DNA from: a virus
DNA length: 39,655 bases
Virus genome (UHGV): UHGV-0213320
Strand: one strand, 5' to 3'
The notes under the pieces were generated by a model, which was not told the origin of the DNA, made no database searches, and was given only the letters and a program-made list of their open reading frames with translations. The position numbers were made by a program, and so were the translations under genes. This document shows, in pieces, positions 9,091 through 33,842 of the stretch (position 1 is its first letter; each line of letters starts with the position of its first letter).

Positions 9091-9897
9091 ATGGAAACAT
9101 TAAGATTCAAAGTAGAGAAACAACATATTGAATATATTTCTCCGCATCCATATCTTGTGGCAGGAACCGAATCGAACATAGAATACTTTATCTACATATA
9201 TCAAGGATTATCGGATATCAATGAAATAGTGTATCCCATGCTTAATGCTGGACCCACTGCTCTACCATATCAGCCCTACCAGTCCAGTACCGCAACCATC
9301 ACCCTGACGGCGCCGTTACGCGGTATCGGGGATGTACGGGACAGGATAATGTGCAGGGATGGCGTGTGGGGTGTGGAAAGGCAATTCGTGTCATTGACTT
9401 TTGACGGGAGTGAGAATTGGATTGCCTCAAACACTGGATACGCGAACAAGAATCGTTTTTGGTTTGGGGGCTATGAAAATGTTATAAGACATGAGACTAA
9501 TTCAAATGTAGGAATAAAAATATTATGTGACAAACTTCCGGGAGAATCCAGTGGAGACACTTATAGGTGTATTGATGGCATATCATCCAATATGGTTGGA
9601 CGGATTATGGTATATTTAGATGATTTTAGTTCAGGTGATGTGTCAGCTTTTAAGACTTATTTATCAACACATCCCATATCGGCCATCTTTGAACTTGCCA
9701 CCCCCACCTGGGAACCCCTCCCCTCCGCGACCCAATCCGCCCTGAACGCACTTACCACCTACACCGGCACCACCCATGTGACCATCACCGCAGGAGGGCC
9801 GGAACCGGATGTGGCGGTGGAGTACGTGCAGGATACAAACGTTGTGATTGCTGAGTTAAAAAAACTGATAGAAGGGATGCAGAATGTTAAGCCCTAA
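9091..9897 (+). CDS. Hypothetical protein between portal and gp7-like gene (possible insertion)
   Basis: 268 aa, beta-rich with a T/P-rich segment. Not the usual portal-gp7 arrangement. Confidence 0.4.
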   Translation: METLRFKVEKQHIEYISPHPYLVAGTESNIEYFIYIYQGLSDINEIVYPMLNAGPTALPYQPYQSSTATITLTAPLRGIGDVRDRIMCRDGVWGVERQFVSLTFDGSENWIASNTGYANKNRFWFGGYENVIRHETNSNVGIKILCDKLPGESSGDTYRCIDGISSNMVGRIMVYLDDFSSGDVSAFKTYLSTHPISAIFELATPTWEPLPSATQSALNALTTYTGTTHVTITAGGPEPDVAVEYVQDTNVVIAELKKLIEGMQNVKP

Positions 9898-11101
9898 TTA
9901 TCTACAGCATATAGCAGATGGAAGTGAAGAAATAGCCTCCCAGCTCCATACATACATCATACGACAGATAATAGACCGCATGATGATACGTATTGGGCGC
10001 GGAGATGATTATTTGCTTACATCCTCTGACAGATGGCGCATTCAGATATTACAGGATGCAGGATATCTGCTGGAGGATATTACGGTAGAGTTATCCAAAG
10101 TCACTAAACGGCAGGAAAAAGAAATCAAGGCTGCTATGGAAGAAGCGGGAATCAAGGCACTGGAATACGACCACAGAATATATGAAGCTGCTGGTTTATC
10201 TCCAATTCCTCTTACTCAATCCCCGCAGCTTATTCGTCTGATGGAACGTAACATGAATGCTACGATGGGAGAATGGCAGAATTATACCAGAACAACCGCA
10301 GAAGCCGCACAGAGGATTTTTATTCATGAATGCGACAATGCTTACCATCTTGTATCTTCAGGGGCTGTATCATACACACAGGCTGTCAAAGAGGCGGTTG
10401 ATAATGTAGTATCTGGTGGAGTGATAGTACACTATCCTTCGGGCCATAAAGATACCATAGAAACTGCTACAGCACGCGCGGTACGAACCGGAGTAGCCCA
10501 GGCTACAGGTGATATCTCGATTAAGCGCATGGAGGAAATGAACTGGGATATCATACTGGTGTCAGCACACATCGGAGCCAGAACTGGGGACGGGGGACAG
10601 AATCCAGGAAATCATTTATGGTGGCAAGGGCAATTTTACAGCCGGACCGGAAAAAATAAGCGCTTCCCTCCATTTTCACAGACTGGATTCGGAACGGGTG
10701 AGGGATTATGTGGGTGGAACTGCCGCCATAGTTTTGGAAGCGGGGATGGGGTAAACAATCCGTACAAAGACATCCAGACCGCAGACAACTATAAGGTTGA
10801 GCAATTGGAGAAGCGGCAGAGAACGCTTGAACGGCGCATTAGAAAGACCAAACGTGAAGTTATGGGAATGCAAGAGGCAGTAGATAAGTGCAAGGATGAA
10901 CCGGCTAAATTTGAAATGCAGCTTGAACTTGACCGTAAATCATATCTGTTACAGCGTCAGAATAAAGCATACAACGAGTTTTGTAAAACGAACGACTTGC
11001 GCACCCAGCAGGAACGGTTGCAGATTGCAAAATGGAACCGGGAGCAGGCCGCAAAGGCCAGGGGAGCAGCGAGGCGGTATCAAAATGCGAAAGGGGAATA
11101 A
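9884..11101 (+). CDS. Head morphogenesis protein, SPP1 gp7 / Mu gpF family
   Basis: 405 aa. C-terminal GWNCRHSF matches the H-NCRC signature of the gp7/MuF family, followed by a coiled-coil tail. Located after the portal. Confidence 0.75.
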   Translation: MLSPNYLQHIADGSEEIASQLHTYIIRQIIDRMMIRIGRGDDYLLTSSDRWRIQILQDAGYLLEDITVELSKVTKRQEKEIKAAMEEAGIKALEYDHRIYEAAGLSPIPLTQSPQLIRLMERNMNATMGEWQNYTRTTAEAAQRIFIHECDNAYHLVSSGAVSYTQAVKEAVDNVVSGGVIVHYPSGHKDTIETATARAVRTGVAQATGDISIKRMEEMNWDIILVSAHIGARTGDGGQNPGNHLWWQGQFYSRTGKNKRFPPFSQTGFGTGEGLCGWNCRHSFGSGDGVNNPYKDIQTADNYKVEQLEKRQRTLERRIRKTKREVMGMQEAVDKCKDEPAKFEMQLELDRKSYLLQRQNKAYNEFCKTNDLRTQQERLQIAKWNREQAAKARGAARRYQNAKGE

Positions 11102-11103
11102 AT

Positions 11104-11487
11104 TTGAATAGATGGAAACCATATAACCCTAACCCAGTTCGTAATCAGCGTGTAGGCGACTGTGCCATACGTGCAATCTGCAAAGCAACTGGACAGGATT
11201 GGGAAACCTCATTTGCTGGTGTTATGGTGGTGGCGTGCGAGAAGTCAGATATGCCGTCAGCTAACAGCGTGTGGGGGACATATCTCAGGCGCAACGGATT
11301 CCGGCGAAACATTATACCAAACGAATATCCAGAAGATTATACTGTGGAAGAATTTGCGTCAGACCACCAGAACGGAGTGTTTGTTCTTGGGCTTGATGGT
11401 CATGTGGTAACGGTTGTAGACGGATTTTACTGGGACACATGGGACAGCGGGCAGGAGATACCAATATACTACTGGGAAAGGCGATAA
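11104..11487 (+). CDS. Putative papain-like (C39-like) cysteine peptidase domain protein
   Basis: TTG start after AGGGG RBS. Motif NQRVGDCAIRAI (Gln...Cys) and GLDGHVVTVVDG (Gly-His) resemble the catalytic Cys/His dyad of the papain/C39 fold. Confidence 0.4.
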   Translation: MNRWKPYNPNPVRNQRVGDCAIRAICKATGQDWETSFAGVMVVACEKSDMPSANSVWGTYLRRNGFRRNIIPNEYPEDYTVEEFASDHQNGVFVLGLDGHVVTVVDGFYWDTWDSGQEIPIYYWERR

Positions 11488-11490
11488 CTT

Positions 11491-11784
11491 ATGGAAACAT
11501 TAAACTCTATTATGGTTGTATGTGGTTGGCTTATTACTCTTGGAGGCGCAGGAACCGTAATATATAAATTGTTGCATCCGGCATTTAAGCTAAAAAACAG
11601 AGTGGATAAATTAGAAATAAATGTGGAAAAAGATTATAAATCTATCCAAGAAATAAGAGATATGCAATCTCTTTTATGCCAGGGAATGATAGCATTAATT
11701 GATAATCGTATAACCGGTAACAACATAGAGGGTTTAAAAAAAACCAAAGAAGCTATGATAAAGCATTTGTCAGAAGGTATTTAA
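11491..11784 (+). CDS. Small membrane protein (N-terminal TM + coiled coil)
   Basis: 97 aa with N-terminal hydrophobic helix IMVVCGWLITLGGAGTVIY. Confidence 0.4.
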   Translation: METLNSIMVVCGWLITLGGAGTVIYKLLHPAFKLKNRVDKLEINVEKDYKSIQEIRDMQSLLCQGMIALIDNRITGNNIEGLKKTKEAMIKHLSEGI

Positions 11785-11795
11785 GGAGTGTTGCT

Positions 11796-11996
11796 TTGAA
11801 GGTGTATGACTTTACAGTGCCAGAACTAAATTATTTTCGTACATATTGTAACTTTACGGATGAAGAACGGGCGCTGTTTGAGTACCGGGCCAAGAACTAT
11901 CCTTTAGAGTATTGCGCTGAATTAATGAATGTTAGTGTCTCTACAGCAAAGCGGTTAAGTAGAAAAGTAAACAACAAAATAATACGTGTATGTTGA
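11796..11996 (+). CDS. Mini sigma-70 region-4-like HTH protein
   Basis: 66 aa. Motif FTDEERALFEYRAKNYPLEYCAELMNVSVSTAKRLSRKV resembles sigma region 4 (L..RER.V...R...G.S..EIA..L.VS..TV). TTG start after AAGGAG. Confidence 0.45.
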   Translation: MKVYDFTVPELNYFRTYCNFTDEERALFEYRAKNYPLEYCAELMNVSVSTAKRLSRKVNNKIIRVC

Positions 11997-12022
11997 TACT
12001 TGCGTGATACTTTTATAAGTCT

Positions 12023-12060
12023 TTGACGAACTGTCAAGGGCTTATTTTTTATGTGATAAT
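12023..12060 (+). promoter_or_regulatory. Promoter-like element (TTGACG / TGTCAA ... TGTGATAAT extended -10) with a short dyad TTGACgaactGTCAA
   Basis: Extended -10 TGtGATAAT at 12052-12060. Dyad at 12024-12038. Precedes the run of strongly RBS-ed accessory genes. Confidence 0.3.
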
Positions 12061-12088
12061 TGGTATATAAAAGAACGGAGGGGATATA

Positions 12089-12559
12089 ATGCCGCAACCA
12101 TTTATCAATCCAAACTATCTTAATGCATATCCAAACGCATACCCGTATCAGCCGCAGATGCAACCACCTATGGACCGATTGCAGCAGCTACAAGCACCAT
12201 ATCAGATGTCGCAACAAACACAAGTTCCGCAGGTTCCTCAGACGAATCAGGGAATATTATGGGTGCAGGGTGAGGCCGGGGCAAAGTCGTATTTAGTAGC
12301 GCCCAGCACATCTATATTGCTGATGGACAGCGAAAATGAGTATTTTTACATTAAGACGACCGATGCGGCAGGGATGCCAACACTTCGCACTTTTGAATAT
12401 AAAGAGATTGTTAATGGACAGAAAAAGGAATCTGTACCGACTGAAAATCTTGACGAAAAATATGTTACCAGAAACGAGTATCAGGATTTAAAGGCAAAAT
12501 ATGATGAATTGTACGGCCTTTTAGAATCCAGCACAGCGCCAAGCGGAAAGGGGAAATAA
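12089..12559 (+). CDS. Q/P/Y-rich low-complexity protein (spore-coat-like composition)
   Basis: 156 aa. N-terminus PQPFINPNYLNAYPNAYPYQPQMQPP. Strong RBS GGAGGGG. Confidence 0.5.
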   Translation: MPQPFINPNYLNAYPNAYPYQPQMQPPMDRLQQLQAPYQMSQQTQVPQVPQTNQGILWVQGEAGAKSYLVAPSTSILLMDSENEYFYIKTTDAAGMPTLRTFEYKEIVNGQKKESVPTENLDEKYVTRNEYQDLKAKYDELYGLLESSTAPSGKGK

Positions 12560-12562
12560 TAT

Positions 12563-12811
12563 ATGAATCCATTATTTAGCATGTTGGGCGGCGGCTCACC
12601 AATGGGTGGCATGATTCCTGGAATGGGTGGGGGAAATAACCCAATGCAGATGATTCAGAAGTTCATGGAATTTAAAAACAATTTCAGGGGAAACCCTCAG
12701 GAAGAAGTACAGAAGATGCTACAGTCCGGCCAGATAACTCAGCAGCAGTTAGACCAGGCACAACAGATGGCCCAGCAGTTTCAGCAGATGCTTGGAGGCA
12801 TGAAAAAATAG
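12563..12811 (+). CDS. Gly/Met/Gln-rich low-complexity protein
   Basis: 82 aa: MLGGGSPMGGMIPGMGGGNNPMQ ... QQQLDQAQQMAQQFQQMLGG. RBS GGAAAGGGG. Confidence 0.45.
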   Translation: MNPLFSMLGGGSPMGGMIPGMGGGNNPMQMIQKFMEFKNNFRGNPQEEVQKMLQSGQITQQQLDQAQQMAQQFQQMLGGMKK

Positions 12812-12866
12812 TACATAAATCAATGCGCATGATTTTGTAAATATATTTTAAAAGGAGTAAATAATT

Positions 12867-13577
12867 ATGGATTCAGGCTATAGTTTAGCAGACATTGCTG
12901 CCGCTACAGGTGGAACAAACCGAAACAATGATGGCTTTGGAGATGGCGGCGCATGGTGGATTATTATACTGTTTTTGTTTGTTTTCTGCGGCTGGGGCAA
13001 TGGCAACGGCTTTGGAAACAATGGAGCAGGAGGGGCCGGATTGCAGGGATTAGCAACACGTGCAGACATCAATGAGGGATTTGCCCTCAACGGAATCGAA
13101 AATGGTATAAGGGGAATTCAGCAGGGAATCTGTGATAGCACATATGCGCTGAACAACACCATTACCAGCGGTTTCAGTGGAGTGGACCGTAGCTTATGCC
13201 AGATGGGCTATCAGCTCCAGGATTGCTGCTGCCAGACACAGCGCGCAATTGATGGTGTAAATTACAATCTGGCGACACAGTCCTGTGATACCAGAAATAC
13301 CATTCAGACTGCAACCAGAGATATTCTGGACAACAACAACAGCAACACAAGAGCTATTCTTGACTTCTTAACCCAAGATAAGATTTCCACCTTACAGGCA
13401 GAGAATCAGACACTTAGGTTCCAGGCAAGTCAGACTGCCCAGAACGGATTTATTGATGCAGTTGGTAACTCAATCGTTGCCCAGCTTCGTCAGCCACAGC
13501 CTGTACCGGCTTATACAGTACCGGCACCATATCCATATGCATCTAACTGTGGATGCAATGCTGGTTGCGGATGCTAA
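12867..13577 (+). CDS. Gly/Cys-rich membrane protein, YjcZ-like (tiny-TM sporulation family-like) N-terminus, C-terminal CGCNAGCGC
   Basis: 236 aa. TM segment WWIIILFLFVFCGW flanked by G/N-rich repeats, CCC cluster and C-terminal CGCNAGCGC. RBS AAAAGGAG. Confidence 0.5.
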   Translation: MDSGYSLADIAAATGGTNRNNDGFGDGGAWWIIILFLFVFCGWGNGNGFGNNGAGGAGLQGLATRADINEGFALNGIENGIRGIQQGICDSTYALNNTITSGFSGVDRSLCQMGYQLQDCCCQTQRAIDGVNYNLATQSCDTRNTIQTATRDILDNNNSNTRAILDFLTQDKISTLQAENQTLRFQASQTAQNGFIDAVGNSIVAQLRQPQPVPAYTVPAPYPYASNCGCNAGCGC

Positions 13578-13848
13578 CTCGAAACGAACAGTTTTACGAT
13601 AATCTTGCTTTATATGCAGCAACATTACAAATGATTAATGTATTTTTGCTTTTGGGAGAAGCTTCTAATAATGATATTATGGAGGCATTACAACAGCAAA
13701 ATAAAGAGTATATGGAAAAGATTATCGAACAAAACAACCGTATATTGCGTATCTTGTCCGAATAGGACATGTCTACTGAACAGTAGTATTACACACATAG
13801 AGGGGTAGGCACAGGCTTGCCCTTCTGTGCATATAAGGAGGATTTATT

Positions 13849-14247
13849 ATGGCAGATTTTGTAACTGCTGGTACACAGACTGTAGAAGTCAATGCAAGCG
13901 TTCTGTTTGCAGCCAACCGGATATATTCTTGCAATTGCCCAAACATAAGGCATGAGCCGCTTTCCGGTAGAGTGGTGTTACTTCCGGGATTATACCGTGT
14001 AGGTTTTAATGGTAATTTTTCAGCCGCAGCCGCAGGTGATGTTATCTTTGAAGTGCAGCAGGACGGCGAAGGTATTCCCGGAGCAAGAATCCAGAATACA
14101 GTCGCAGCTGGAGCAACAATCAATGGTGCAGCAACTGTAGAAGTGCGGGTATGTAAGCCATGTTGCGCTACGCTCTCGGTGAAAAACGTTGGAGCCGCAG
14201 CAGCAACGGTAACAGACTCTAACCTTGTTGTTAGCAGAATAGGTTAA
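13849..14247 (+). CDS. BclA C-terminal-domain-like (C1q/TNF jelly-roll-like) protein
   Basis: 132 aa. Pattern VEVNASVLF...LPGLYRVGFNGNFSAAAAGDVIFEVQQDG...ATINGAATVEV...LSVKNVGAAAATVTDSNLVVSRIG is typical of the exosporium BclA_C fold. Strong RBS AAGGAGG. Confidence 0.5.
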   Translation: MADFVTAGTQTVEVNASVLFAANRIYSCNCPNIRHEPLSGRVVLLPGLYRVGFNGNFSAAAAGDVIFEVQQDGEGIPGARIQNTVAAGATINGAATVEVRVCKPCCATLSVKNVGAAAATVTDSNLVVSRIG

Positions 14248-14259
14248 GGAGGTAAGGCT

Positions 14260-14799
14260 ATGAGTTATAAGTTAATGCAGAATATCCATGAAGAACTGGA
14301 TAAGATTGCGGAAAAGGGCCTGAACACCAGCAATCTTGAAACCGCATATAAATTGATTGACATGTGGAAAGACATGGAGAATGTAGAGTACTGGAAGTGC
14401 AAAGAAGAGTACTACAATCAGGTAATGGACGAAATGGACGGCGGAGAATACAGCGAAGCACGCAACAAGCGTGACAGCATCGGACGTTATAGTCGTGCTG
14501 ATGGAATGTATCAGGGATATGATAATGATAGTTCGTACCGTGGAACACGTGGGAAACATTACGTCAGAGGACATTACAGCCGCGCAAATGGTCCAGCCTA
14601 TGACGATTACATGAACCAGAAACAGAGTTATCGAAGCGGTGGGAAAGATGAAGATTGCAAGCGGCGTATGCTTGCGGCACTTGAACATCACATGGATGAA
14701 TTGACCGAGGAAATAGGAGAAATGAGCCGTGACGCTGAGTGCAGAGAGGAAAGGGAGGTCATGAAACGCTATATAGAAAAACTGCGTAACATGATGTAA
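14260..14799 (+). CDS. Hypothetical charged protein
   Basis: 179 aa, RBS GGAGGTAAGG, ends at a bidirectional terminator. Confidence 0.5.
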   Translation: MSYKLMQNIHEELDKIAEKGLNTSNLETAYKLIDMWKDMENVEYWKCKEEYYNQVMDEMDGGEYSEARNKRDSIGRYSRADGMYQGYDNDSSYRGTRGKHYVRGHYSRANGPAYDDYMNQKQSYRSGGKDEDCKRRMLAALEHHMDELTEEIGEMSRDAECREEREVMKRYIEKLRNMM

Positions 14800-14802
14800 T
14801 CT

Positions 14803-14830
14803 AAAAGGCAGGATTAACTTCCTGCCTTTT
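14803..14830. terminator. Bidirectional rho-independent terminator (AAAAGGCAGGA-ttaac-TTCCTGCCTTTTT)
   Basis: Near-perfect 10-11 bp GC-containing stem with an A-run on one side and a T-run on the other, between convergent genes. Confidence 0.7.
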
Positions 14831-15791
14831 TATGATGAATTTGTACCGGACGCGTCAAAGCGTCTAGAATATCCCATCCTCTGTATATGCGGCTATGTAC
14901 CCTTGTATAAGGAACTCCGTATTTTCTGCACCAATTTGCTAGAGAGTTTGTAACGCCGTTTATTGTGAACATTAAATTCCTATTTGTATTATTTCCTTGT
15001 TGAACATCTGTAGCCAATCTACAATTTGATGGCTCATATCCCTTGGCATTATCAATTCTGTCAATAGATAAATTTTCTTCATACCCATTATTTAAAGCCC
15101 ATTTTTTAAATTTCTTATACTCTTTCCATTCTTGGCAAACAGCTATTCCTTTTTCTCCATACAAATAGTACGACTTGTGTTTTGGGCTATAGCAACGTAA
15201 CATCATATCATGCCATATACGATAAATCCGAGTATTTGTATCTCCGTGAGTAGTATTTCTTTCTATGGCAACCTCCCTGTTATAACAGCCACATGATTTT
15301 GTATGCCCACTAATTAAGTTTTGTTGATGAACAATTACCGAGTTTCCACAGTTGCATTTACATTCCCATAAGGTTTGTTTTCCGTTGCTTTTTCCGGCAT
15401 ACCGTATGGCTACTAAACGCCCAAAACGCTTCCCTGAAATATCATCCACTTTGGGAGTTCTGCAATTTTTACAGCATTTCTCGTAAGGAGATTTTAATGC
15501 GAACGCACTTGTTATAAATCGCGTTCCGCAGTCGCATGCACATTCGTATTGAACGTATGATTTTTTCATAGGAAGTTTTTTTAATATAGTCAATTTCCCT
15601 ATTTTTCTTCCTGATAGATTTTCCTTGTTTATGCAGCCGCATGATTTTGTTTTTCCGTCACGCAGATTCCCAGAATAGATTTTTCGCTCTGTTCCACATT
15701 GGCAGCGACATAAATAATACTGATTACCAAGGTATTCTAGGACTGTCCACATTCCAAACTTTTGACCTGTTAAATCAATTCTTTTTGTCAT
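14814..15791 (-). CDS. HNH(HNH_3)-like homing-endonuclease-type protein with three N-terminal zinc-ribbon repeats
   Basis: Start at the second Met (MTKRIDL) after RBS GGAAGGGG. Three repeats of L[ST]G[QRK][KR][FI]G.L.[VI]L...(Y/W).C.C.CG...........SCGC. C-terminal IYRIWHDMMLRC...YGEKGIAVCQEW...LSIDRIDNAKGYEPSNCRLAT..QQGNN matches the HNH_3/AP2-like module. Opposite strand to the structural genes. Confidence 0.7.
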   Translation of the reverse strand: MTKRIDLTGQKFGMWTVLEYLGNQYYLCRCQCGTERKIYSGNLRDGKTKSCGCINKENLSGRKIGKLTILKKLPMKKSYVQYECACDCGTRFITSAFALKSPYEKCCKNCRTPKVDDISGKRFGRLVAIRYAGKSNGKQTLWECKCNCGNSVIVHQQNLISGHTKSCGCYNREVAIERNTTHGDTNTRIYRIWHDMMLRCYSPKHKSYYLYGEKGIAVCQEWKEYKKFKKWALNNGYEENLSIDRIDNAKGYEPSNCRLATDVQQGNNTNRNLMFTINGVTNSLANWCRKYGVPYTRVHSRIYRGWDILDALTRPVQIHHKKAGS

Positions 15792-15864
15792 TAAGTAACC
15801 CCTTCCTATATTCGATATTATACCATAAGAACGAGAAACAATCAATTGGTATATAGTTAGAAAG

Positions 15865-15898
15865 TGGGGATAAGAAAAGTAAAATAATCTGGTATAAT
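15865..15898 (+). promoter_or_regulatory. Extended -10 promoter (TGGTATAAT) upstream of the KTR moron
   Basis: TGgTATAAT at 15890-15898. Confidence 0.3.
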
Positions 15899-15920
15899 GA
15901 GAGGGGATATCTAACCTTAC

Positions 15921-15960
15921 AAAATGTGGGGACGATTATTCCTTATGAATATAGTAAAAT
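15921..15960 (+). promoter_or_regulatory. Second copy of late-promoter motif AAAATGTGGGGACGATT + 17 nt + TAAAAT
   Basis: Identical 17-mer to 5706-5722. Drives the KTR zinc-ribbon gene. Confidence 0.45.
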
Positions 15961-15991
15961 GGGAGTAAGAATAAACAGAAAGGGTGAAAAC

Positions 15992-16162
15992 ATGGTAAAA
16001 GATGGTTGGGTTTACTGCCCTATATGTAATAATAAGACAAGAACAAAAATAAGAAAAGATACAGAAGCCAAGAATTTACCTGTGTTTTGCCCAAAGTGCA
16101 GGAATACAACTGTTATGGATATATATGGAAGTGAAATAAAAAGAATGCAAAGCATTAAATAG
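15992..16162 (+). CDS. Cysteine-rich KTR-type zinc-ribbon protein (moron)
   Basis: 56 aa. MVKDGWVYCPICNNKTRTKIRKDTEAKNLPVFCPKCRNT matches the Cys-rich KTR pattern (CPxC..KTR...CPKC). RBS AAGGGTG. Own promoter and terminator. Confidence 0.6.
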   Translation: MVKDGWVYCPICNNKTRTKIRKDTEAKNLPVFCPKCRNTTVMDIYGSEIKRMQSIK

Positions 16163-16182
16163 AGCCAGTCGCCAGTCGCAGA

Positions 16183-16222
16183 GCCATACAGATTACAGCA
16201 ATGTAGTTTGCATGGCTTTTTA
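16183..16222 (+). terminator. Rho-independent terminator after the KTR gene
   Basis: GCCATACAGATTACAG...GTAGTTTGCATGGC hairpin (13 of 15 paired) followed by TTTTT. Confidence 0.6.
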
Positions 16223-16511
16223 CTATATTTGAACCTCCCTCCTATAGCACATGTCCTTAACAGAAACAGGTCCTAGCTCATAGAGTAAACGGCCTGTAGG
16301 TTGAAAAGCGGATGCAATTTCCGGCATGTGCATTCCTTCTAAAGGCTATCCTCCTCCCGTAATGGAGATAGAAAAAACTTGTCAGTTATGACCTGGACGA
16401 AACTGAAAAATGATACGGCATTGTTTTGGTGGGATATCGGCGGGCTGACAGCATTTCAGAGTACATATGCGGCGCAAAAAGGCGTGACGAGGAGTTTTCA
16501 AGAAATGCAAT

Positions 16512-16584
16512 CGGGAAATAGCTCAGTTGGTAGAGCAGCAGCCTTATAAGCTGTGTGTCAGAGGTTCGATTCCTCTTTTCCCGA
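16512..16584 (+). tRNA. tRNA-Ile (anticodon UAU, AUA decoder)
   Basis: Manual fold: acceptor CGGGAAA/TTTCCCG, D-arm GCTC-AGTTGGTA-GAGC, anticodon arm GCAGC-CTTATAA-GCTGT (anticodon TAT), T-arm AGAGG-TTCGATT-CCTCT, discriminator A. No encoded CCA. Confidence 0.75.
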
Positions 16585-16733
16585 TGTAGTCGGGTCGCTC
16601 CCGGATGATGTGAGAGCACGCAGAATGCCTCACAGAAAATGACAATGCCTGCTGAAAACTACTGCGATAGTTCCAGGGACTAGGACACGGGACTGAAATT
16701 CGCAGTGTGACAATCTAAGCAGGAACTGCATCA

Positions 16734-16822
16734 TGAGGATTCGCCAAGCGGTTAAGGCACCGGGTTTTGACCCCGGCAAAGAAGGAACACTCTTTACGCT
16801 GGTTCAAATCCAGCATCCTCAG
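16734..16822 (+). tRNA. tRNA-Gln(UUG)-like with anomalous 21-nt variable arm
   Basis: Acceptor TGAGGAT/ATCCTCA (U1:A72, G2:C71), discriminator G73. D-arm UCGCCAAGCGGUUAAGGCA is near-identical to canonical bacterial tRNA-Gln. Anticodon arm CCGGG-TTTTGAC-CCCGG (anticodon UUG), T-arm GCTGG-TTCAAAT-CCAGC. Between the anticodon and T arms there is a 21-nt stem-loop (CAAAGAAGGAACACTCTTTAC) instead of a 4-5 nt variable loop. Confidence 0.6.
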
Positions 16823-16913
16823 TTTTGGACACGCCAAGTCCTACAAAATGGCAAACCGTTGGTGGACGGTTACACACCTACAAATAACCTAATAACGGAA
16901 AAGGAGAATCATC

Positions 16914-17537
16914 ATGAAAACCGAAGAATTAAAAGCACAAGGATTGACAGAAGAACAGATATCTTTTGTTATGGCTGAAAATGGGAAAGACCTCAAAAAG
17001 TTGCAGAAAGAAAACGACAATCTGAGCGCAGACCGGGATACCTGGAAAGAAAAAGCAGAAGCAGCAGAAACAACGCTGAAAGGATTTGAAGGGGTTGACC
17101 TGGAAACGATGCAGAGGGAAATATCTGACTGGAAACAGAAAGCTACGGAAGCCGAGAAAAAAGCCCAGGAGCAGCTTTACGCGCGTGACTTTTCGGACGC
17201 TCTGAAAACGGAATTTGAGGGTATTAAGTTTTCCAGCGAAGCGGCTAAACGTGCAATTATGGCAGAAGTAAAAGAGGCCGGTTTAAAACTGAAAGATGGT
17301 AAAATTCTGGGGCTGAATGACCTTTTGTCTCAAATGAAAGAAAAAGATGCTTCGGCTTTTGTTGATGATGCACAGCAGCAGGTACAGCAGAACATGGCGA
17401 GGTTTACCGCACCAGTAGGTAAGCAGAATACGCCAGGAACTATGACACGAAAGGATATTGAAGCGATTAAAGACCCGTCTGAGCGCCAGTCTGCAATCGC
17501 CAGTAACCTACATTTATTCGGTAAAGGAGAACAGTAA
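16914..17537 (+). CDS. Scaffolding protein
   Basis: 207 aa, highly charged coiled-coil composition, immediately upstream of the major capsid gene. RBS AAAAGGAGA. Confidence 0.7.
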   Translation: MKTEELKAQGLTEEQISFVMAENGKDLKKLQKENDNLSADRDTWKEKAEAAETTLKGFEGVDLETMQREISDWKQKATEAEKKAQEQLYARDFSDALKTEFEGIKFSSEAAKRAIMAEVKEAGLKLKDGKILGLNDLLSQMKEKDASAFVDDAQQQVQQNMARFTAPVGKQNTPGTMTRKDIEAIKDPSERQSAIASNLHLFGKGEQ

Positions 17538-18709
17538 TGGCAGCAAAAGCCAATTTAATTACAAGTGCAGACATACAGGTTACGGCTCGCGAAATTGATT
17601 TTGTAACACGCTTTGAAAGGAACTGGCAGCACCTCCGGGATATCCTGGGGATTATGCGTCCTATTAAGAAAACACCGGGCGCGGTGCTGAAAAGCAAATA
17701 TGCAGAAGGAACTTTACAGAGCGGTGCTGTAGGCGAGGGAGAGGAAATCCCTTACAGCAAATTTACAGTAAAGGAAAAGACATATGCGGAAATGACCATA
17801 GAGAAGTATGCAAAGGCCGTTTCCATTGAAGCAATTAAAGACCACGGCTATGAAAATGCCGTCCAGATGACAGACGACGAATTTTTGTTCCAGCTTCAAT
17901 CGGATGTAACAGAACGATTCTATACATATCTGAATACCGGTACACTTACCGGAACAGAAACCACTTTCCAGATGGCCCTTGCTATGGCAAAAGGAATGGT
18001 AGAAAACAAATTCAAACAGATGCACCGGAATGTTACAGGTGTGGTTGGGTTTGCGAATATTCTGGATGTATACCAGTACTTGGGGGCTGCTGAAATCACT
18101 GTGCAGAATCAGTTTGGTTTCCAGTATCTCAAAGATTTCATGGGATTCAATACAATCTTCCTGCTGTCCGACTCGGAAATTGCAAGAGGAAAAATAATAG
18201 CTACACCAGTGGAAAACATTGTAATGTACTATGTTGACCCAAATGAGAGCGATTTTGCACGGGCGGGTCTGGTATATACCACTGGAGCCGGGGAGACAAA
18301 CCTTATCGGATTCCATACTCAGGGGAACTACAATACAGCTGTTTCTGAAGCATTTGCAATCATGGGTTTGACCTTGTTTGCAGAATATATTGACGGAATC
18401 GCGGTTGTTGATATTACTGATAATCCCGTTCTTGGAACACTGACGGTAACTTCTTCGGCCGGAAGCGCATCAGGAAACACAAAATTAACCGTTGAACCTC
18501 CCCTCGAAACAGGACACATGTACAAGTACAAAGTGGCAGCTGATTCCGCTCCAGAAGTGAAATATGGTCAGAATGTAAAGACGTGGACAGCATGGGACGG
18601 TAAATCTGATATCAAGGCAACGACCGGGAATCATATCACAGTAGTTGAGTGTGACAATACCTATAAGGCGTTGAAATCTGGAAATGACGATGTAACGTCT
18701 CACTCTTAA
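17537..18709 (+). CDS. Major capsid protein
   Basis: 390 aa directly after the scaffold gene (ATG overlaps the scaffold stop). Size and position. Confidence 0.7.
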   Translation: MAAKANLITSADIQVTAREIDFVTRFERNWQHLRDILGIMRPIKKTPGAVLKSKYAEGTLQSGAVGEGEEIPYSKFTVKEKTYAEMTIEKYAKAVSIEAIKDHGYENAVQMTDDEFLFQLQSDVTERFYTYLNTGTLTGTETTFQMALAMAKGMVENKFKQMHRNVTGVVGFANILDVYQYLGAAEITVQNQFGFQYLKDFMGFNTIFLLSDSEIARGKIIATPVENIVMYYVDPNESDFARAGLVYTTGAGETNLIGFHTQGNYNTAVSEAFAIMGLTLFAEYIDGIAVVDITDNPVLGTLTVTSSAGSASGNTKLTVEPPLETGHMYKYKVAADSAPEVKYGQNVKTWTAWDGKSDIKATTGNHITVVECDNTYKALKSGNDDVTSHS

Positions 18710-19576: not shown

Positions 19577-19840
19577 ATGGACATTACAACATTAGGAACA
19601 TGTGTGGCTATTGTGGCCCTGAGCTATGTGGTTGGCCTTGGATGCAAGGCGGCAAAGAAGATACCGGACGAATGGATTCCGGTCATCATGGCTGTTGTCG
19701 GTGGCATTCTAGGCGCGCTTGGTATGGGGACAATCCCAGACTTCCCGGCATCGGACTATATCACGGCTGTGGCGGTCGGTGCTGTGTCTGGTCTGGCAGC
19801 TACAGGGGTTAACCAGATGTATAAGCAGATGAATAAATAA
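19577..19840 (+). CDS. Holin-like small membrane protein (2-3 TM helices)
   Basis: 87 aa. Hydrophobic helices TCVAIVALSYVVGLGC, IPVIMAVVGGILGALGMG, AVAVGAVSGLAATGV. Charged C-terminus. Confidence 0.45.
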   Translation: MDITTLGTCVAIVALSYVVGLGCKAAKKIPDEWIPVIMAVVGGILGALGMGTIPDFPASDYITAVAVGAVSGLAATGVNQMYKQMNK

Positions 19841-31448: not shown

Positions 31449-31574
31449 ATGTATACAACATTAAAAAGGCTATATAACAATTGTAAAGGTCCATTAACTG
31501 TTGCCGAACTTAACCGGGCTGTTTCAATTGGATGGATTACAGAGCAGCAGAAAAACAGTATAATCGGAGGATGA
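31449..31574 (+). CDS. XkdX-family small protein
   Basis: 41 aa MYTTLKRLYNNCKGPLTVAELNRAVSIGWITEQQKNSIIGG, shaped like PBSX XkdX (W...IT.E.Y..I.G). Lies just upstream of the lysin. Confidence 0.45.
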   Translation: MYTTLKRLYNNCKGPLTVAELNRAVSIGWITEQQKNSIIGG

Positions 31575-31576
31575 TT

Positions 31577-32317
31577 ATGAGAGATATCACATTGTGCCAT
31601 CCACGCTTGCAGCTTTTAGCGGGTCAGTTGGTGGATGAATGCAATAAACAGGGATTAAAAATTAAGATAGGCGAAACACTGCGAACCGTGGCAGAACAGG
31701 ATGCTTTATACGCTCAGGGCAGGACTAAACCGGGGAACATTGTAACTAATGCTCCTGGCAGCAGCTACAGTTCCTATCATCAGTGGGGTACTGCCTTTGA
31801 TATCTTCCGCAATGACGGCGCTGGTGCTTATAATGAAATTGGGGGCTTTTTTAACCGTGTAGGTGCTATCGGTGTATCTTTAGGACTTGAATGGGGTGGA
31901 AATTGGAAGTCTCCTGTGGACAAGCCACATTTCCAGTTGCCGAATTGGGGAAGCAGCACATCTGGAATCAAGAAACTGTATCGTAACCCGAATGAATTTA
32001 TGAAAACCTGGGTTACGGAGGAGCGCACAGGCTGGATTAAAGATAATAACGGTTGGTGGTATCGCAGACCAGATGGAACTTACCCGACTAATAAATGGTG
32101 TATCATAAATCACCATTGGTATCTGTTTAATAAGGACGGATATGCTTGCACCAGCTGGCACCGCTGGAATGGAAGTGCATGTGACCCGGACGATGGTTCT
32201 GGGGATTGGTATTACTTTGACCCTACACCAGACGGTCCATTGGAGGGGGCGTGCTGGCATAGTCAAGATAATGGGGCGCAGAATGTCTGGTACATAGAGG
32301 ATTCTAATTCAATATAA
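31577..32317 (+). CDS. Endolysin: M15-family peptidase domain + choline-binding-type cell-wall-binding repeats
   Basis: Catalytic motif SYHQWGTAFDI...EWGGNW...DKPHFQL (M15 / VanY-like zinc peptidase). C-terminal GWIKDNNGWWY / NKWCIINHHWYLFNKDGY / GDWYYF repeats (CW_binding_1-like). RBS CGGAGG. Confidence 0.8.
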   Translation: MRDITLCHPRLQLLAGQLVDECNKQGLKIKIGETLRTVAEQDALYAQGRTKPGNIVTNAPGSSYSSYHQWGTAFDIFRNDGAGAYNEIGGFFNRVGAIGVSLGLEWGGNWKSPVDKPHFQLPNWGSSTSGIKKLYRNPNEFMKTWVTEERTGWIKDNNGWWYRRPDGTYPTNKWCIINHHWYLFNKDGYACTSWHRWNGSACDPDDGSGDWYYFDPTPDGPLEGACWHSQDNGAQNVWYIEDSNSI

Positions 32318-32605: not shown

Positions 32606-33676
32606 TCACATAATAAACTTTTCAAAGTGTTTATTGATTTTTTTATTCTGCCGGACGGATTCCAGGTCAATCACATTCCTGTATACAGTTTTCATGATAT
32701 TGTCACTGGCCCATCCTCCCCGCTGCAATATATATTGGTCTGGTACACCTATGGCGTGCATAATGGATGCAGCATAATGCCGGAGGTCGTGAAAGCGAAA
32801 ATGCGGTACATCAATCTTTTTAAGCACCCGCCCAAATCTATGTGTGATATAATCCGGGTTCATGTCAACCAGCTTCCCTTTTTTGCCAGATATCCGGTCA
32901 ATTACAAAGGCTGGCATTTCTACGTCCCGTGTGCTGTCATCCGTCTTTGGCTGCTTGATATACCATTGATTGTCTGGTCCCTTGACCATATTGTCTCTTA
33001 CATGGATAATACGACCTTCTACATTTTTATCAGTAAGGGCGCTTATCTCTCCGCGTCTGAGTGGGCCAAATGCAGCCAGTAACACGGCTATCTCTAAATC
33101 TGTACCTTTGATAGCGTCTAACAGCTTTTTAATATCATTGTCATTGGGGCAGTATAAATCGGGGCGTTTTTTCTGTGGAAGCTTTACCTTTAAGGTTAAA
33201 TCAGGCGCAAACATTTCCAATGATGCGGATAACAGGCCATAGGCATTTCTAACTGTCTTGGGAGACAGTTGTTTTCCTGCCAAATCACTTACCCATATCT
33301 GTACAGATGGATTAGATAGCTCTGAGAGCCGTTTACGCCCAAATACGCCGTCAAAATACTGCCTTTGCATACCAACATACCCTCTAAGCGTAGAAGGGCT
33401 TAAAACTCCTTTTTTGACGCTCAAATAACGTTCGATAGCTTGACTCACTGTTATATCTTCGTCCTCTTCCTCTTCCGGTACGTTGTATTGCTCTATAGGC
33501 TTGTCCTTCATGTCTAATTTCCATCTGGTAGCCATCTCCTTTGCCTCTTTACGTGATGGAGCAACAAAGCTTTTGTAATGCCGTTTTCCTTTATCATCTG
33601 TATACAGATACACTTGCACTCTGACATTTCCAGACGGCAGTACTCCTTTTTTCTTTTTCGGGGCTTTTGTAGTCAT
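32606..33676 (-). CDS. int: Tyrosine integrase (phage integrase family)
   Basis: Start MTTKAPKKKKG after RBS GGAGGAAAG. N-terminal SAM-like/arm domain, catalytic RRGEISAL (Arg), HRFGRVL / HDLRHYAAS (HxxR), GGWASDNIMKTVYRNV (Tyr). 356 aa. Confidence 0.9.
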   Translation of the reverse strand: MTTKAPKKKKGVLPSGNVRVQVYLYTDDKGKRHYKSFVAPSRKEAKEMATRWKLDMKDKPIEQYNVPEEEEDEDITVSQAIERYLSVKKGVLSPSTLRGYVGMQRQYFDGVFGRKRLSELSNPSVQIWVSDLAGKQLSPKTVRNAYGLLSASLEMFAPDLTLKVKLPQKKRPDLYCPNDNDIKKLLDAIKGTDLEIAVLLAAFGPLRRGEISALTDKNVEGRIIHVRDNMVKGPDNQWYIKQPKTDDSTRDVEMPAFVIDRISGKKGKLVDMNPDYITHRFGRVLKKIDVPHFRFHDLRHYAASIMHAIGVPDQYILQRGGWASDNIMKTVYRNVIDLESVRQNKKINKHFEKFIM

Positions 33677-33842
33677 TTTTCTTTCCTCCTTCAATTGATT
33701 TTCCTGAAAATAGGTATAAAAAATACAGCTCCGCAAATATCTTGCAAAGCCGCCCCGAAGATGGTACAATATAAGTGCGAATTATAGTGCATATCTTCGG
33801 GTATGTAGGCCGGTTCCTGTTGGCGCAGGGGCCGGTTTTATT

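Follow-up and report, generated by a model that had tools for sequence, protein, structure and literature searches.

A widespread mobile accessory operon of phages of gut Clostridia includes a predicted BclA-like jelly-roll protein

In the virus genome UHGV-0213320 (39,655 nucleotides; this whole stretch is the window analyzed here), a 5.8-kilobase (kb) block at positions 11104-16913 separates the minor capsid gene from the scaffold gene. What is such a block doing inside a head module, and is it one thing? An original prediction, made from the sequence alone, took it for an accessory island of spore-coat- and exosporium-like low-complexity proteins, either cargo for the spore surface or a set of virion decorations. 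The window is a temperate siphovirus-type genome in which the genes of the large terminase, portal, Phage_min_cap2 minor capsid protein, scaffold, major capsid protein, tail, endolysin (31532-32317), and a tyrosine integrase (32606-33769, minus strand) follow one another. On the left, the block is flanked by the minor capsid gene (9884-11101, plus strand), the gp7/MuF analogue, whose product shares 70% identity with the "minor capsid protein" of Dulem virus 35 and belongs to Pfam Phage_min_cap2 (E = 5.5e-73); on the right lies the scaffold gene (16914-17537, plus strand; Pfam Phage_scaffold, E = 1.1e-27). In the cultured Blautia phage Montmirail, which encodes a minor capsid protein 58% identical to that of the window, these two genes are separated by a 40-codon open reading frame (ORF), and in phiCD38-2 by one ORF of 94 codons. 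Since both relatives have a single small ORF at this place, the 5.8-kb block is a genuine insertion between the gp7/MuF-like gene and the scaffold gene, as had been proposed. Consistently, when hidden Markov models (HMMs) of the families encoded in the block were run against 30 kb of Montmirail spanning its structural and lysis genes, only sigma-like regulators were matched. No DNA nearly identical to the block was found in the phage collection searched.

All of the genes that the original prediction had listed in the block are present, at the same or nearly the same positions, and the strong ribosome-binding sites it described are recognizable as Shine-Dalgarno-like runs with AGG or GAGG upstream of each of the plus-strand genes, which we call P1 to P8. 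As an accessory insertion in the head module the block therefore stands; as a single unit it does not. It is a composite, made of a conserved mobile operon (11104-14831) and of unrelated mobile or small elements of other composition, and the G + C content is 0.46 in P4-P8 compared with 0.36 in two genes of the right-hand part, encoding an HNH endonuclease and a KTR zinc-ribbon protein. P2, these two genes, and two tRNA genes lie outside the conserved unit.

The extent of the operon became apparent from searches with iterated profiles of each window protein in 84 further phage and prophage loci of gut Clostridia (78 genome loci, with one genome per species, and six phage loci). In two of these loci, L007 and L008 (Enterocloster or Dorea lysogens), the P4, P6, and P8 sequences are 88-97% identical to those of the window. 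Genes recur there in the order (P3)(P1) P4-P5-P6-(P6b)-P7-P8, P6b being a small additional gene described below. P4 was found, adjacent to P6, in 77 of the 84 loci and in all 59 of those whose sequence extends 2.5 kb or more to either side of P6; P7 was present in 51, P8 in 49, P1 in 46, P3 in 44, and P5 in 41. The P6 family alone comprises more than 8000 protein clusters at 90% identity. At 50% identity, its profile retrieved 2764 representatives, each a stand-alone protein between roughly 100 and 400 residues long, and homologues occur in 24 deposited phage records. A literature search on the cassette, on the domain DUF7841 (see below), and on phage-borne BclA or exosporium genes returned nothing relevant.

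Genes of the operon class to which the window belongs are not assorted at random. P1, P5, P7, and P8 strongly co-occur (p = 4.5e-11 for P1 and P5, contingency table 28/6/0/25; p = 3e-9 for P1 and P8), and P5 is never seen without P1 (28/28). In a second class, the P5-like slot is taken by a Met/Gln/Asn/Pro-rich protein of ~75-83 residues, the P7 slot by a Cys-rich protein of ~131 residues, and the P8 slot by an Arg/Asp/Tyr-rich protein ending in Pfam DUF7841. Hence, the architecture is kept while some of its parts are exchanged. Homology between the Cys-rich 131-residue protein and P7 was considered and rejected (hhalign probability 2.5%); the former has no relative in the PDB. The DUF7841 match (2.4e-33) covers the C-terminal domain of the P8-slot protein, for instance at 9271-10080 of locus L085 and 11192-11923 of locus L010, and provides a genomic context for this domain.

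The location of the operon in the window is not its usual one. A minor capsid gene adjoins it in only 9-10 of the 84 loci. By a crude classification that relied on few seed proteins and left half of the loci unclassified, ~12 loci lie in a head module, ~20 directly downstream of endolysin or holin genes, and ~15 have an integrase gene just downstream. In five loci that were read from one very common prophage lineage, tail genes, an Amidase_3 endolysin, and a holin precede the operon, which is followed by the integrase or the end of the prophage; P6 of this lineage is listed on 405 contigs. With only ~12 head-module loci and most others located after lysis genes or next to an integrase, we conclude that the operon is able to switch phage backbones and that its site in the window is one of the less common ones.

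Its hosts are varied. The operon was also found on contigs binned to Faecalibacterium, Subdoligranulum, and Agathobaculum, which, like Butyrivibrio fibrisolvens, are not known to sporulate, and sporulating Clostridia, among them Enterocloster and C. perfringens, account for many others of its hosts; host labels of metagenome-assembled genomes can be wrong, and Prevotella and Collinsella bins are among the loci too. The full set P1, P4, P5, P6, P7, and P8 is carried by Butyrivibrio phage Ceridwen, in which no integrase was found. On B. fibrisolvens, Ceridwen was seen solely in the lytic cycle, and the authors who described it considered it virulent (PMC7372960).

The protein that most directly recalls the spore surface is P7 (13849-14247, plus strand), a stand-alone BclA_C/TNF/C1q-like jelly roll of 132 residues with five cysteines. 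P7 of the window did not match Pfam BclA_C (PF18573) at E <= 0.1. However, 12 of the 52 members of its family did (best E = 5e-7), and PF18573 is carried by two homologues 61-63% identical to P7. The AlphaFold2 model is all-beta with a mean predicted local distance difference test score (pLDDT) of 88.8. In Foldseek searches this model was closest to the C-terminal domain of F-BclA (9h38; 2e-8, template modeling (TM) score 0.75), followed by BclA (1wck; 4e-7), BxpB (8d02), and ExsFA (7r1m); the next matches to the model were EDA, 4-1BBL, C1q, the spike knob of phage phi812, and fiber domains of cyanophages. A profile of the P7 family found no match among PDB sequences. The BclA_C/C1q-like assignment was thus supported both by the modeled fold and by the 12 family members on the Pfam profile. 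Compared with the BclA_C family and with ExsFA and BxpB of the Bacillus cereus group, P7 would have the same TNF/C1q-like fold (Foldseek 2e-8 to 3e-6, TM scores 0.69-0.77), and it shares with ExsFA and BxpB a single-domain build of ~130-170 residues and the lack of a signal peptide. In contrast to BclA, it consists of the globular domain alone, with neither collagen-like repeats nor an exosporium-targeting N terminus. It further differs from all three in being phage-encoded, including by phages of non-sporulating hosts, and in belonging to an operon without any other exosporium homologue.

For the remaining operon proteins, the composition noted earlier was confirmed by counts, whereas the families proposed on that basis were not. 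P4 (12089-12559, plus strand; phrog_21718, 4.8e-48), a universal member of the operon, is a 156-residue protein in which a Q/P/Y-rich N terminus (14 Gln and 11 Pro among the first 55 residues) is followed by a small conserved domain and a C-terminal helix. P5 (12563-12811, plus strand; phrog_22984, 5.8e-22) has 82 residues, of which 20% are Gln, 16% Gly, and 15% Met; a conserved N-terminal NPLFxxLGG motif precedes a helical Q-rich C terminus. The hallmark of the operon is P6 (12867-13577, plus strand; phrog_16490, 5.1e-63), a Gly/Cys-rich protein of 236 residues with 11 cysteines and one hydrophobic segment, which is flanked by glycines. A helical N/Q/T-rich region and a CCC motif (C120-C122, invariant in the family) follow; a CGC motif lies at the C terminus, and the protein of the window ends CGCNAGCGC. 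P8 (14260-14799, plus strand; phrog_28802, 8.2e-69), 179 residues long, has helical ends and an Arg/Tyr/Gly/Ser-rich center with RDxxGRYSR motifs. P6 had been called YjcZ-like; neither P6 nor any of 74 relatives matched YjcZ/tiny_TM or any other family in Pfam or NCBIfam, and its 236 residues, like the ~250 (200 to 300) of its family, compare with ~30-60 for those proteins. Likewise, P4, P5, P6, and P8 matched no spore-coat family, nor anything else in Pfam or NCBIfam, singly or as families, and no profile match was obtained for GerQ, CotJ, CotY/ExsY, or any coat family besides BclA_C. When all family members were scanned against Pfam, BclA_C in the P7 family was the one real match. No signal peptides were predicted in the operon proteins.

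Several fainter resemblances were discarded. The C-terminal Gly-Gly of P5 (LGGMKK in the window) looks ubiquitin-like and is not kept in the family alignment; the N terminus of P6 in the window resembles a double-glycine leader, and this motif is not kept in its family either. PDB profile searches with the P4, P6, and P8 families returned only non-significant matches (a VP5 coiled coil at 0.014, influenza HA2 at ~1, and designed helical repeats), and weak Pfam matches were deemed noise: DUF2524 in four members of the P8 family (0.0065), HAP1_N in the P6 family (coiled coil), and one Baculo_PEP_C (0.0018).

One operon gene was absent from the original prediction. P6b (13571-13765, plus strand, with an alternative start at 13553) overlaps the P6 stop codon, encodes ~64-70 residues, has homologues in nine loci, and is called as a gene in public assemblies. 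It matches Pfam DAM-like-phage2, a helical domain of phage methylase-like proteins, just over the cut-off (3e-6, 27.6 bits). Its hydrophobic N terminus and helical tail are reminiscent of small holin-like proteins.

How is the operon expressed? Upstream of P4 lies P3 (11796-11996, plus strand), a 66-residue sigma-70 region-4-like helix-turn-helix (HTH) protein that we regard as the putative activator of the operon; it precedes the operon in 44 of the 84 loci. P3 falls below the cut-off of Pfam Sigma70_r4_2 (0.011; 15.8 bits against 25.7). The earlier call of a mini sigma region-4 protein found support elsewhere: P3 matches the PHROG sigma factor family at 9.5e-6, and the HMM of its own family matches the annotated sigma factor of phage Montmirail at 4e-9. 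Within its 66 residues region 4 alone is matched, and sigma factor region 2 is lacking.

The DNA behind P3 has a conserved layout. Two direct repeats of TGATACTT, 11 nucleotides (nt) apart (11994-12001 and 12005-12012, plus strand), are candidate binding sites for P3. Of 41 loci compared, 27 have a repeated 6-11-mer with a spacing of 9-13 nt where P3 ends, as against 22% of random regions; the repeat differs in sequence by locus and is often a TGACA or TGATA variant. A terminator-like hairpin with a T-run follows (12015-12050, plus strand; hairpin 12015-12045, -15.5 kcal/mol, z = -4.95), an arrangement seen after P3 in 36 of the 41 loci and in 9% of random regions. Just past this hairpin, at the promoter-like site of the original prediction (12052-12060, plus strand), lies the predicted extended -10 promoter element TGTGATAAT. 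Of the 41 P3-downstream regions, 15 have the pattern TGnnAnA[AT]T behind a T-run, as opposed to 2% of random ones, and a ribosome-binding site and the first operon gene come next. By its sequence, the predicted operon promoter is of the extended -10 housekeeping type and not sigma-E/K-like. The far end of the operon is marked by the predicted bidirectional intrinsic terminator (14803-14831), whose sequence AAAAGGCAGGA-ttaac-TTCCTGCCTTTT forms a perfect hairpin between an A-run and a T-run; its z scores are -5.7 on the plus and -5.6 on the minus strand, and it closes the operon as well as the convergent HNH gene. A generic scan of the window for promoters and terminators found it no richer than shuffled sequence; the signal comes solely from the comparison across loci.

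The simplest reading of this conserved layout is a promoter without a -35 element that would be switched on by P3 and insulated by terminators. In being a small HTH protein that scores weakly on sigma-70 region 4 and better on phage sigma families, P3 resembles region-4-only activators of Firmicutes phages, of the RinA/ArpU/LtrC type, and small HTH regulators of the GerE type; -35-like direct repeats lie downstream of it. It differs from these regulators in that it remains below the Pfam cut-off, lacks region 2, and putatively controls an accessory rather than a late structural operon.

P1 (11104-11487, plus strand) supplies the only enzymatic fold. This 127-residue protein is a putative papain-like Cys-His-Asp peptidase with a C39/Josephin-like fold. 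Its C20, H100, and D111 are kept without exception in 46 homologues from the loci and 90 from databases, and a papain-like alpha+beta fold with the cysteine at the N terminus of a helix was found as well; the earlier papain-like call is upheld on both grounds. Pfam, including Peptidase_C39, returned no match for P1 or for the 46 family members. Thus, of the profile searches suggested by the original prediction, the one for BclA_C was successful through family members, and those for YjcZ, spore-coat families, and, for P1, Pfam C39 were not. P1 is only 4-15% identical to C39 peptidases, which remove double-glycine leaders in bacteriocin ABC transporters, and to Josephin deubiquitinases and "clippases." In contrast to C39 domains it is a free protein without a transporter fusion, and no transporter is encoded in the operon. 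Homologues of P1 also stand alone in early regions of Geobacillus phage GBK2 (4980-5369 of locus L091), of Bacillus phage Tsamsa (5968-6363 of locus L092), and of Tsamsa-like phages. The next gene, P2 (11491-11784, plus strand), encodes a 97-residue protein with one N-terminal hydrophobic segment (maximum hydropathy 1.85, residues 6-24). It is present in only 3 of the 84 loci, i.e., it is lineage-specific and not part of the conserved operon, and it matched no family in Pfam, PHROG, or NCBIfam-type profile searches.

What would such an operon do? We tentatively favor, at somewhat less than an even chance, the view that it is an autonomous accessory unit which, late in infection, makes proteins that assemble at a membrane anchor, and which acts at the envelope. 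Judging from the conserved architecture, P3 made from upstream (late) transcripts would bind the direct repeats past its own stop codon. The hairpin would halt read-through, the P3-dependent extended -10 element would start a P4-P8 transcript, and the bidirectional terminator would end it. P6 would be inserted in the cytoplasmic membrane through its single hydrophobic segment, and P7, presumably as a trimer, may assemble on it together with P4, P5, and P8 into a membrane-anchored Cys-rich complex. The case for an assembly anchored by P6 is that P1 is the sole enzymatic fold, that signal peptides are absent, that P6 combines a hydrophobic segment with invariant cysteines and P7 has five of them, and that P4, P5, and P8 are largely of low complexity. 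P1 would process one component, probably after Gly-Gly; because P5 never occurs without P1 and carries the conserved NPLFxxLGG, it is the candidate substrate. Last, and most conjecturally, the operon would be a dispensable, mobile, late lytic function, for example the exclusion of other phages or the conditioning of the envelope at release. Its absence from the related cultured phage Montmirail supports dispensability, and its retention by the virulent Ceridwen argues for a role in the lytic cycle.

Several observations weigh against an envelope assembly. The hydrophobic stretch of P6 is short (~15-19 residues) and flanked by glycines, and its membrane anchoring is a prediction. That the operon proteins assemble with one another is our proposal; no annotated homologue points to a function, and Pfam, NCBIfam, PADLOC, and the PDB contain no relative of P4, P5, P6, or P8. 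The lone P1 homologues of the Bacillus and Geobacillus phages imply that P1 may act independently of the operon, and suggest an independent role of this family, possibly in host takeover or anti-defense. Finally, non-enzymatic proteins encoded on the late strand and a TNF-like jelly roll, as found in phage receptor-binding proteins, would suit a role in the virion equally.

This last alternative, which we consider unlikely though it deserves to be taken seriously, would make the operon a virion accessory set: trimers of P7, with P4, P5, and P8 as adaptors or chaperones, would decorate the capsid or tail or form receptor-binding knobs, and, as part of the same proposal, P6 would be a membrane-active protein borne by the particle, its hydrophobic segment chaperoned until assembly by the Met/Gln-rich P5. 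All products but P1 are indeed non-enzymatic and lack signal peptides, the P7 model resembles the phi812 spike knob and cyanophage tail-fiber domains, knobs of the TNF-like type are common in phage fibers, the operon lies on the late strand and in ~12 loci within the head module, and a virulent phage keeps it. The P7 slot is also hypervariable, its occupant being replaceable by the unrelated Cys-rich protein, as in host-range cassettes. However, the terminators insulate the operon from the late operon, and a regulator and a predicted promoter of its own are unusual for structural genes. Its usual place, after the lysis genes and beside the integrase, does not fit a virion role either; siphovirus particles do not typically have low-complexity proteins rich in Q/P/Y or R/Y/G, nor a hydrophobic anchor, and no likeness to known decoration proteins was seen in Pfam or PHROG.

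The same lysis-integrase position and autonomous regulation are typical of prophage defense cargo, and the combination of a membrane protein with a protease and the mobility between phage backbones would also be expected of an unrecognized prophage-borne system for anti-phage defense or superinfection exclusion, with P6 as membrane effector, P1 as protease switch, and P3 as regulator. We regard this as quite improbable: none of nine cassette proteins and the DUF7841 variant had a PADLOC match, no nuclease, NTPase, or sensor domain is present, four of the six proteins are low-complexity or structural, and the operon also occurs in a virulent phage.

The proposal that the proteins are spore-surface cargo, which the mother cell of a lysogen would produce and add to the coat or exosporium of its spore, fared worse, and we now consider it very unlikely. 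It draws on the best structural matches of the P7 model, all of which are exosporium proteins (F-BclA, BclA, BxpB, and ExsFA), on the stand-alone form that P7 shares with ExsFA and BxpB, and on the many sporulating hosts, Enterocloster and C. perfringens among them. The operon proteins are also Cys-, Gln-, and Tyr-rich and lack signal peptides, in which they resemble coat proteins that the mother cell makes. The presence of the operon in a virulent phage of the non-sporulating Butyrivibrio makes this role unlikely, and the Faecalibacterium, Subdoligranulum, and Agathobaculum contigs weaken it further. Neither a restriction to sporulating hosts nor promoters of the sigma-E/K type were found; what is predicted instead is an extended -10 promoter with a putative activator and no sigma-E/K consensus. 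No coat family besides BclA_C gave a profile match, and many operons swap the BclA-like protein for an unrelated one. More generally, "spore coat" calls based on composition need checks by profile and host range.

A related and even more speculative notion, to which we attach very little weight, retains the likeness to spore coats and moves it to the virus. Self-assembling proteins produced very late under an activator would form an exosporium- or occlusion-like protective matrix on progeny particles or cell remnants; its components would be the membrane-anchored Cys-rich protein, the ExsF/BclA-like trimer, the Gln/Pro/Tyr- and Arg/Tyr-rich proteins, and a maturation peptidase. Such a coat would become cross-linked through its cysteines once outside the anaerobic gut and would serve persistence between hosts, as a phage counterpart of spore coats or of the occlusion bodies of baculoviruses.

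Could unrelated morons simply have accumulated by chance at a permissive site behind the minor capsid gene? The elements of differing composition (HNH, KTR, tRNAs, and RAGATH-21 RNA) and the lineage-specific P2 might point that way. This explanation is hardly credible, being already contradicted for the core by the P4-P8 order kept across 84 loci in different phage backbones and by the strong co-occurrence of its genes (p down to 4.5e-11); within the block, it applies to the right-hand third only. A lysis cassette was also considered and rejected: the phage has its own endolysin (31532-32317) and Hol44-type holin (19577-19840), and the operon has no muralytic domain.

Returning to the accessory operon that we favor, its closest analogues are phage morons and lysogenic-conversion cassettes, such as lambda bor and lom or the toxin cassettes that Firmicutes prophages carry between their lysis genes and attachment site. 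Conserved terminators with an extended -10 element (the predicted promoter), absence from relatives, and three kinds of genomic context place it in this category. Like those cassettes, it is terminator-flanked, mobile, and dispensable, has its own predicted promoter, and usually sits at the lysis-integrase junction. Unlike single-gene morons, it has six to seven genes and a dedicated putative activator and is found in an apparently virulent phage too, and none of its products resembles a toxin, an adhesin, or a known exclusion protein. We conclude that the operon is an uncharacterized, very widespread variant of the moron-type accessory operon, unusual for its all-structural gene content.

The operon is among the more abundant functional dark matter in phages of gut Clostridia, and its design is clear: a putative activator, an insulated predicted promoter, five non-enzymatic proteins, and a proposed Gly-Gly-type peptidase. 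Solving it would tell whether phages build an envelope- or particle-associated structure of an undescribed kind and would account for the spread of a spore-surface fold (BclA/ExsF) among phages whose hosts do not sporulate. It would also assign functions to six PHROG families and DUF7841 and could provide a compact activator-promoter pair for genetically difficult gut Firmicutes.

To the right of the operon, the minus-strand gene (14814-15845, probable start 15791) encodes an HNH homing-type endonuclease, as the original prediction had it (PHROG HNH endonuclease family, phrog_374, 1.7e-96), and represents a separate mobile element. The protein has three repeated Cys-rich N-terminal modules and no Pfam match at E <= 0.1. 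The neighboring KTR zinc-ribbon gene (15926-16162, plus strand, probable start 15992) was likewise correctly recognized; its product matches Pfam Cys_rich_KTR (PF14205) at 1.6e-19, with 69.9 bits against a cut-off of 25.5. The probable internal ATG starts of both genes are each preceded by a ribosome-binding site. Codon usage sets the two genes apart: CAA makes up 92% of their Gln codons compared with 13% in the operon, Ile preferences are opposite too, and the HNH gene uses CAA and ATA nearly exclusively, contrary to the rest of the phage.

Both tRNAs of the original prediction are present, tRNA-Ile (UAU) at 16511-16585 (plus strand; ARAGORN; Rfam tRNA, 73.8 bits) and tRNA-Gln (UUG) at 16734-16822 (plus strand; ARAGORN; Rfam tRNA, 55.6 bits). 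The latter, 89 nt in length, has a long variable arm with an 18-nt insertion; an arm of ~18 nt is unusual for tRNA-Gln, and the charging identity of this UUG tRNA is uncertain. That it serves the Gln-rich operon genes was rejected, as 87% of the operon's Gln codons are CAG and the CAA/ATA-rich genes are those of HNH and KTR. Two structured RNAs were absent from the original prediction. A RAGATH-21 RNA (16246-16332, plus strand; Rfam RF03097, 79.7 bits, gathering threshold 70.3, E = 9.6e-16) lies between the KTR gene and the tRNAs. A GP20-b motif (16827-16891, plus strand; Rfam RF03003, 39.4 bits, gathering threshold 36.2) forms the leader of the scaffold gene; given its position directly 5' of this Phage_scaffold (GP20) gene, it probably provides scaffold and capsid with a leader or regulatory element of their own past the insertion.

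Three further features of the structural region deserve mention. A 268-codon ORF between the portal and minor capsid genes (9091-9897, plus strand) has a product with a weak match to the C-terminal part of a PHROG tail-fiber family (3.6e-9). No gene occupies this site in Montmirail, and a 497-codon gene does in Dulem virus 35; it is a second variable insertion site of the head module. The last domain of the major capsid protein (17537-18709, plus strand; residues 308-388) matches the one at the C terminus of the S-layer protein SbsC (Pfam S-l_SbsC_C, 4.4e-16), and the capsid may therefore already show an extra surface domain. Finally, the Hol44-type holin gene (19577-19840, plus strand; Pfam Phage_holin_5_2, 3e-22) lies amid head-tail connector genes, 12 kb from the endolysin gene, and the holin of Dulem virus 35 is placed in the same way.

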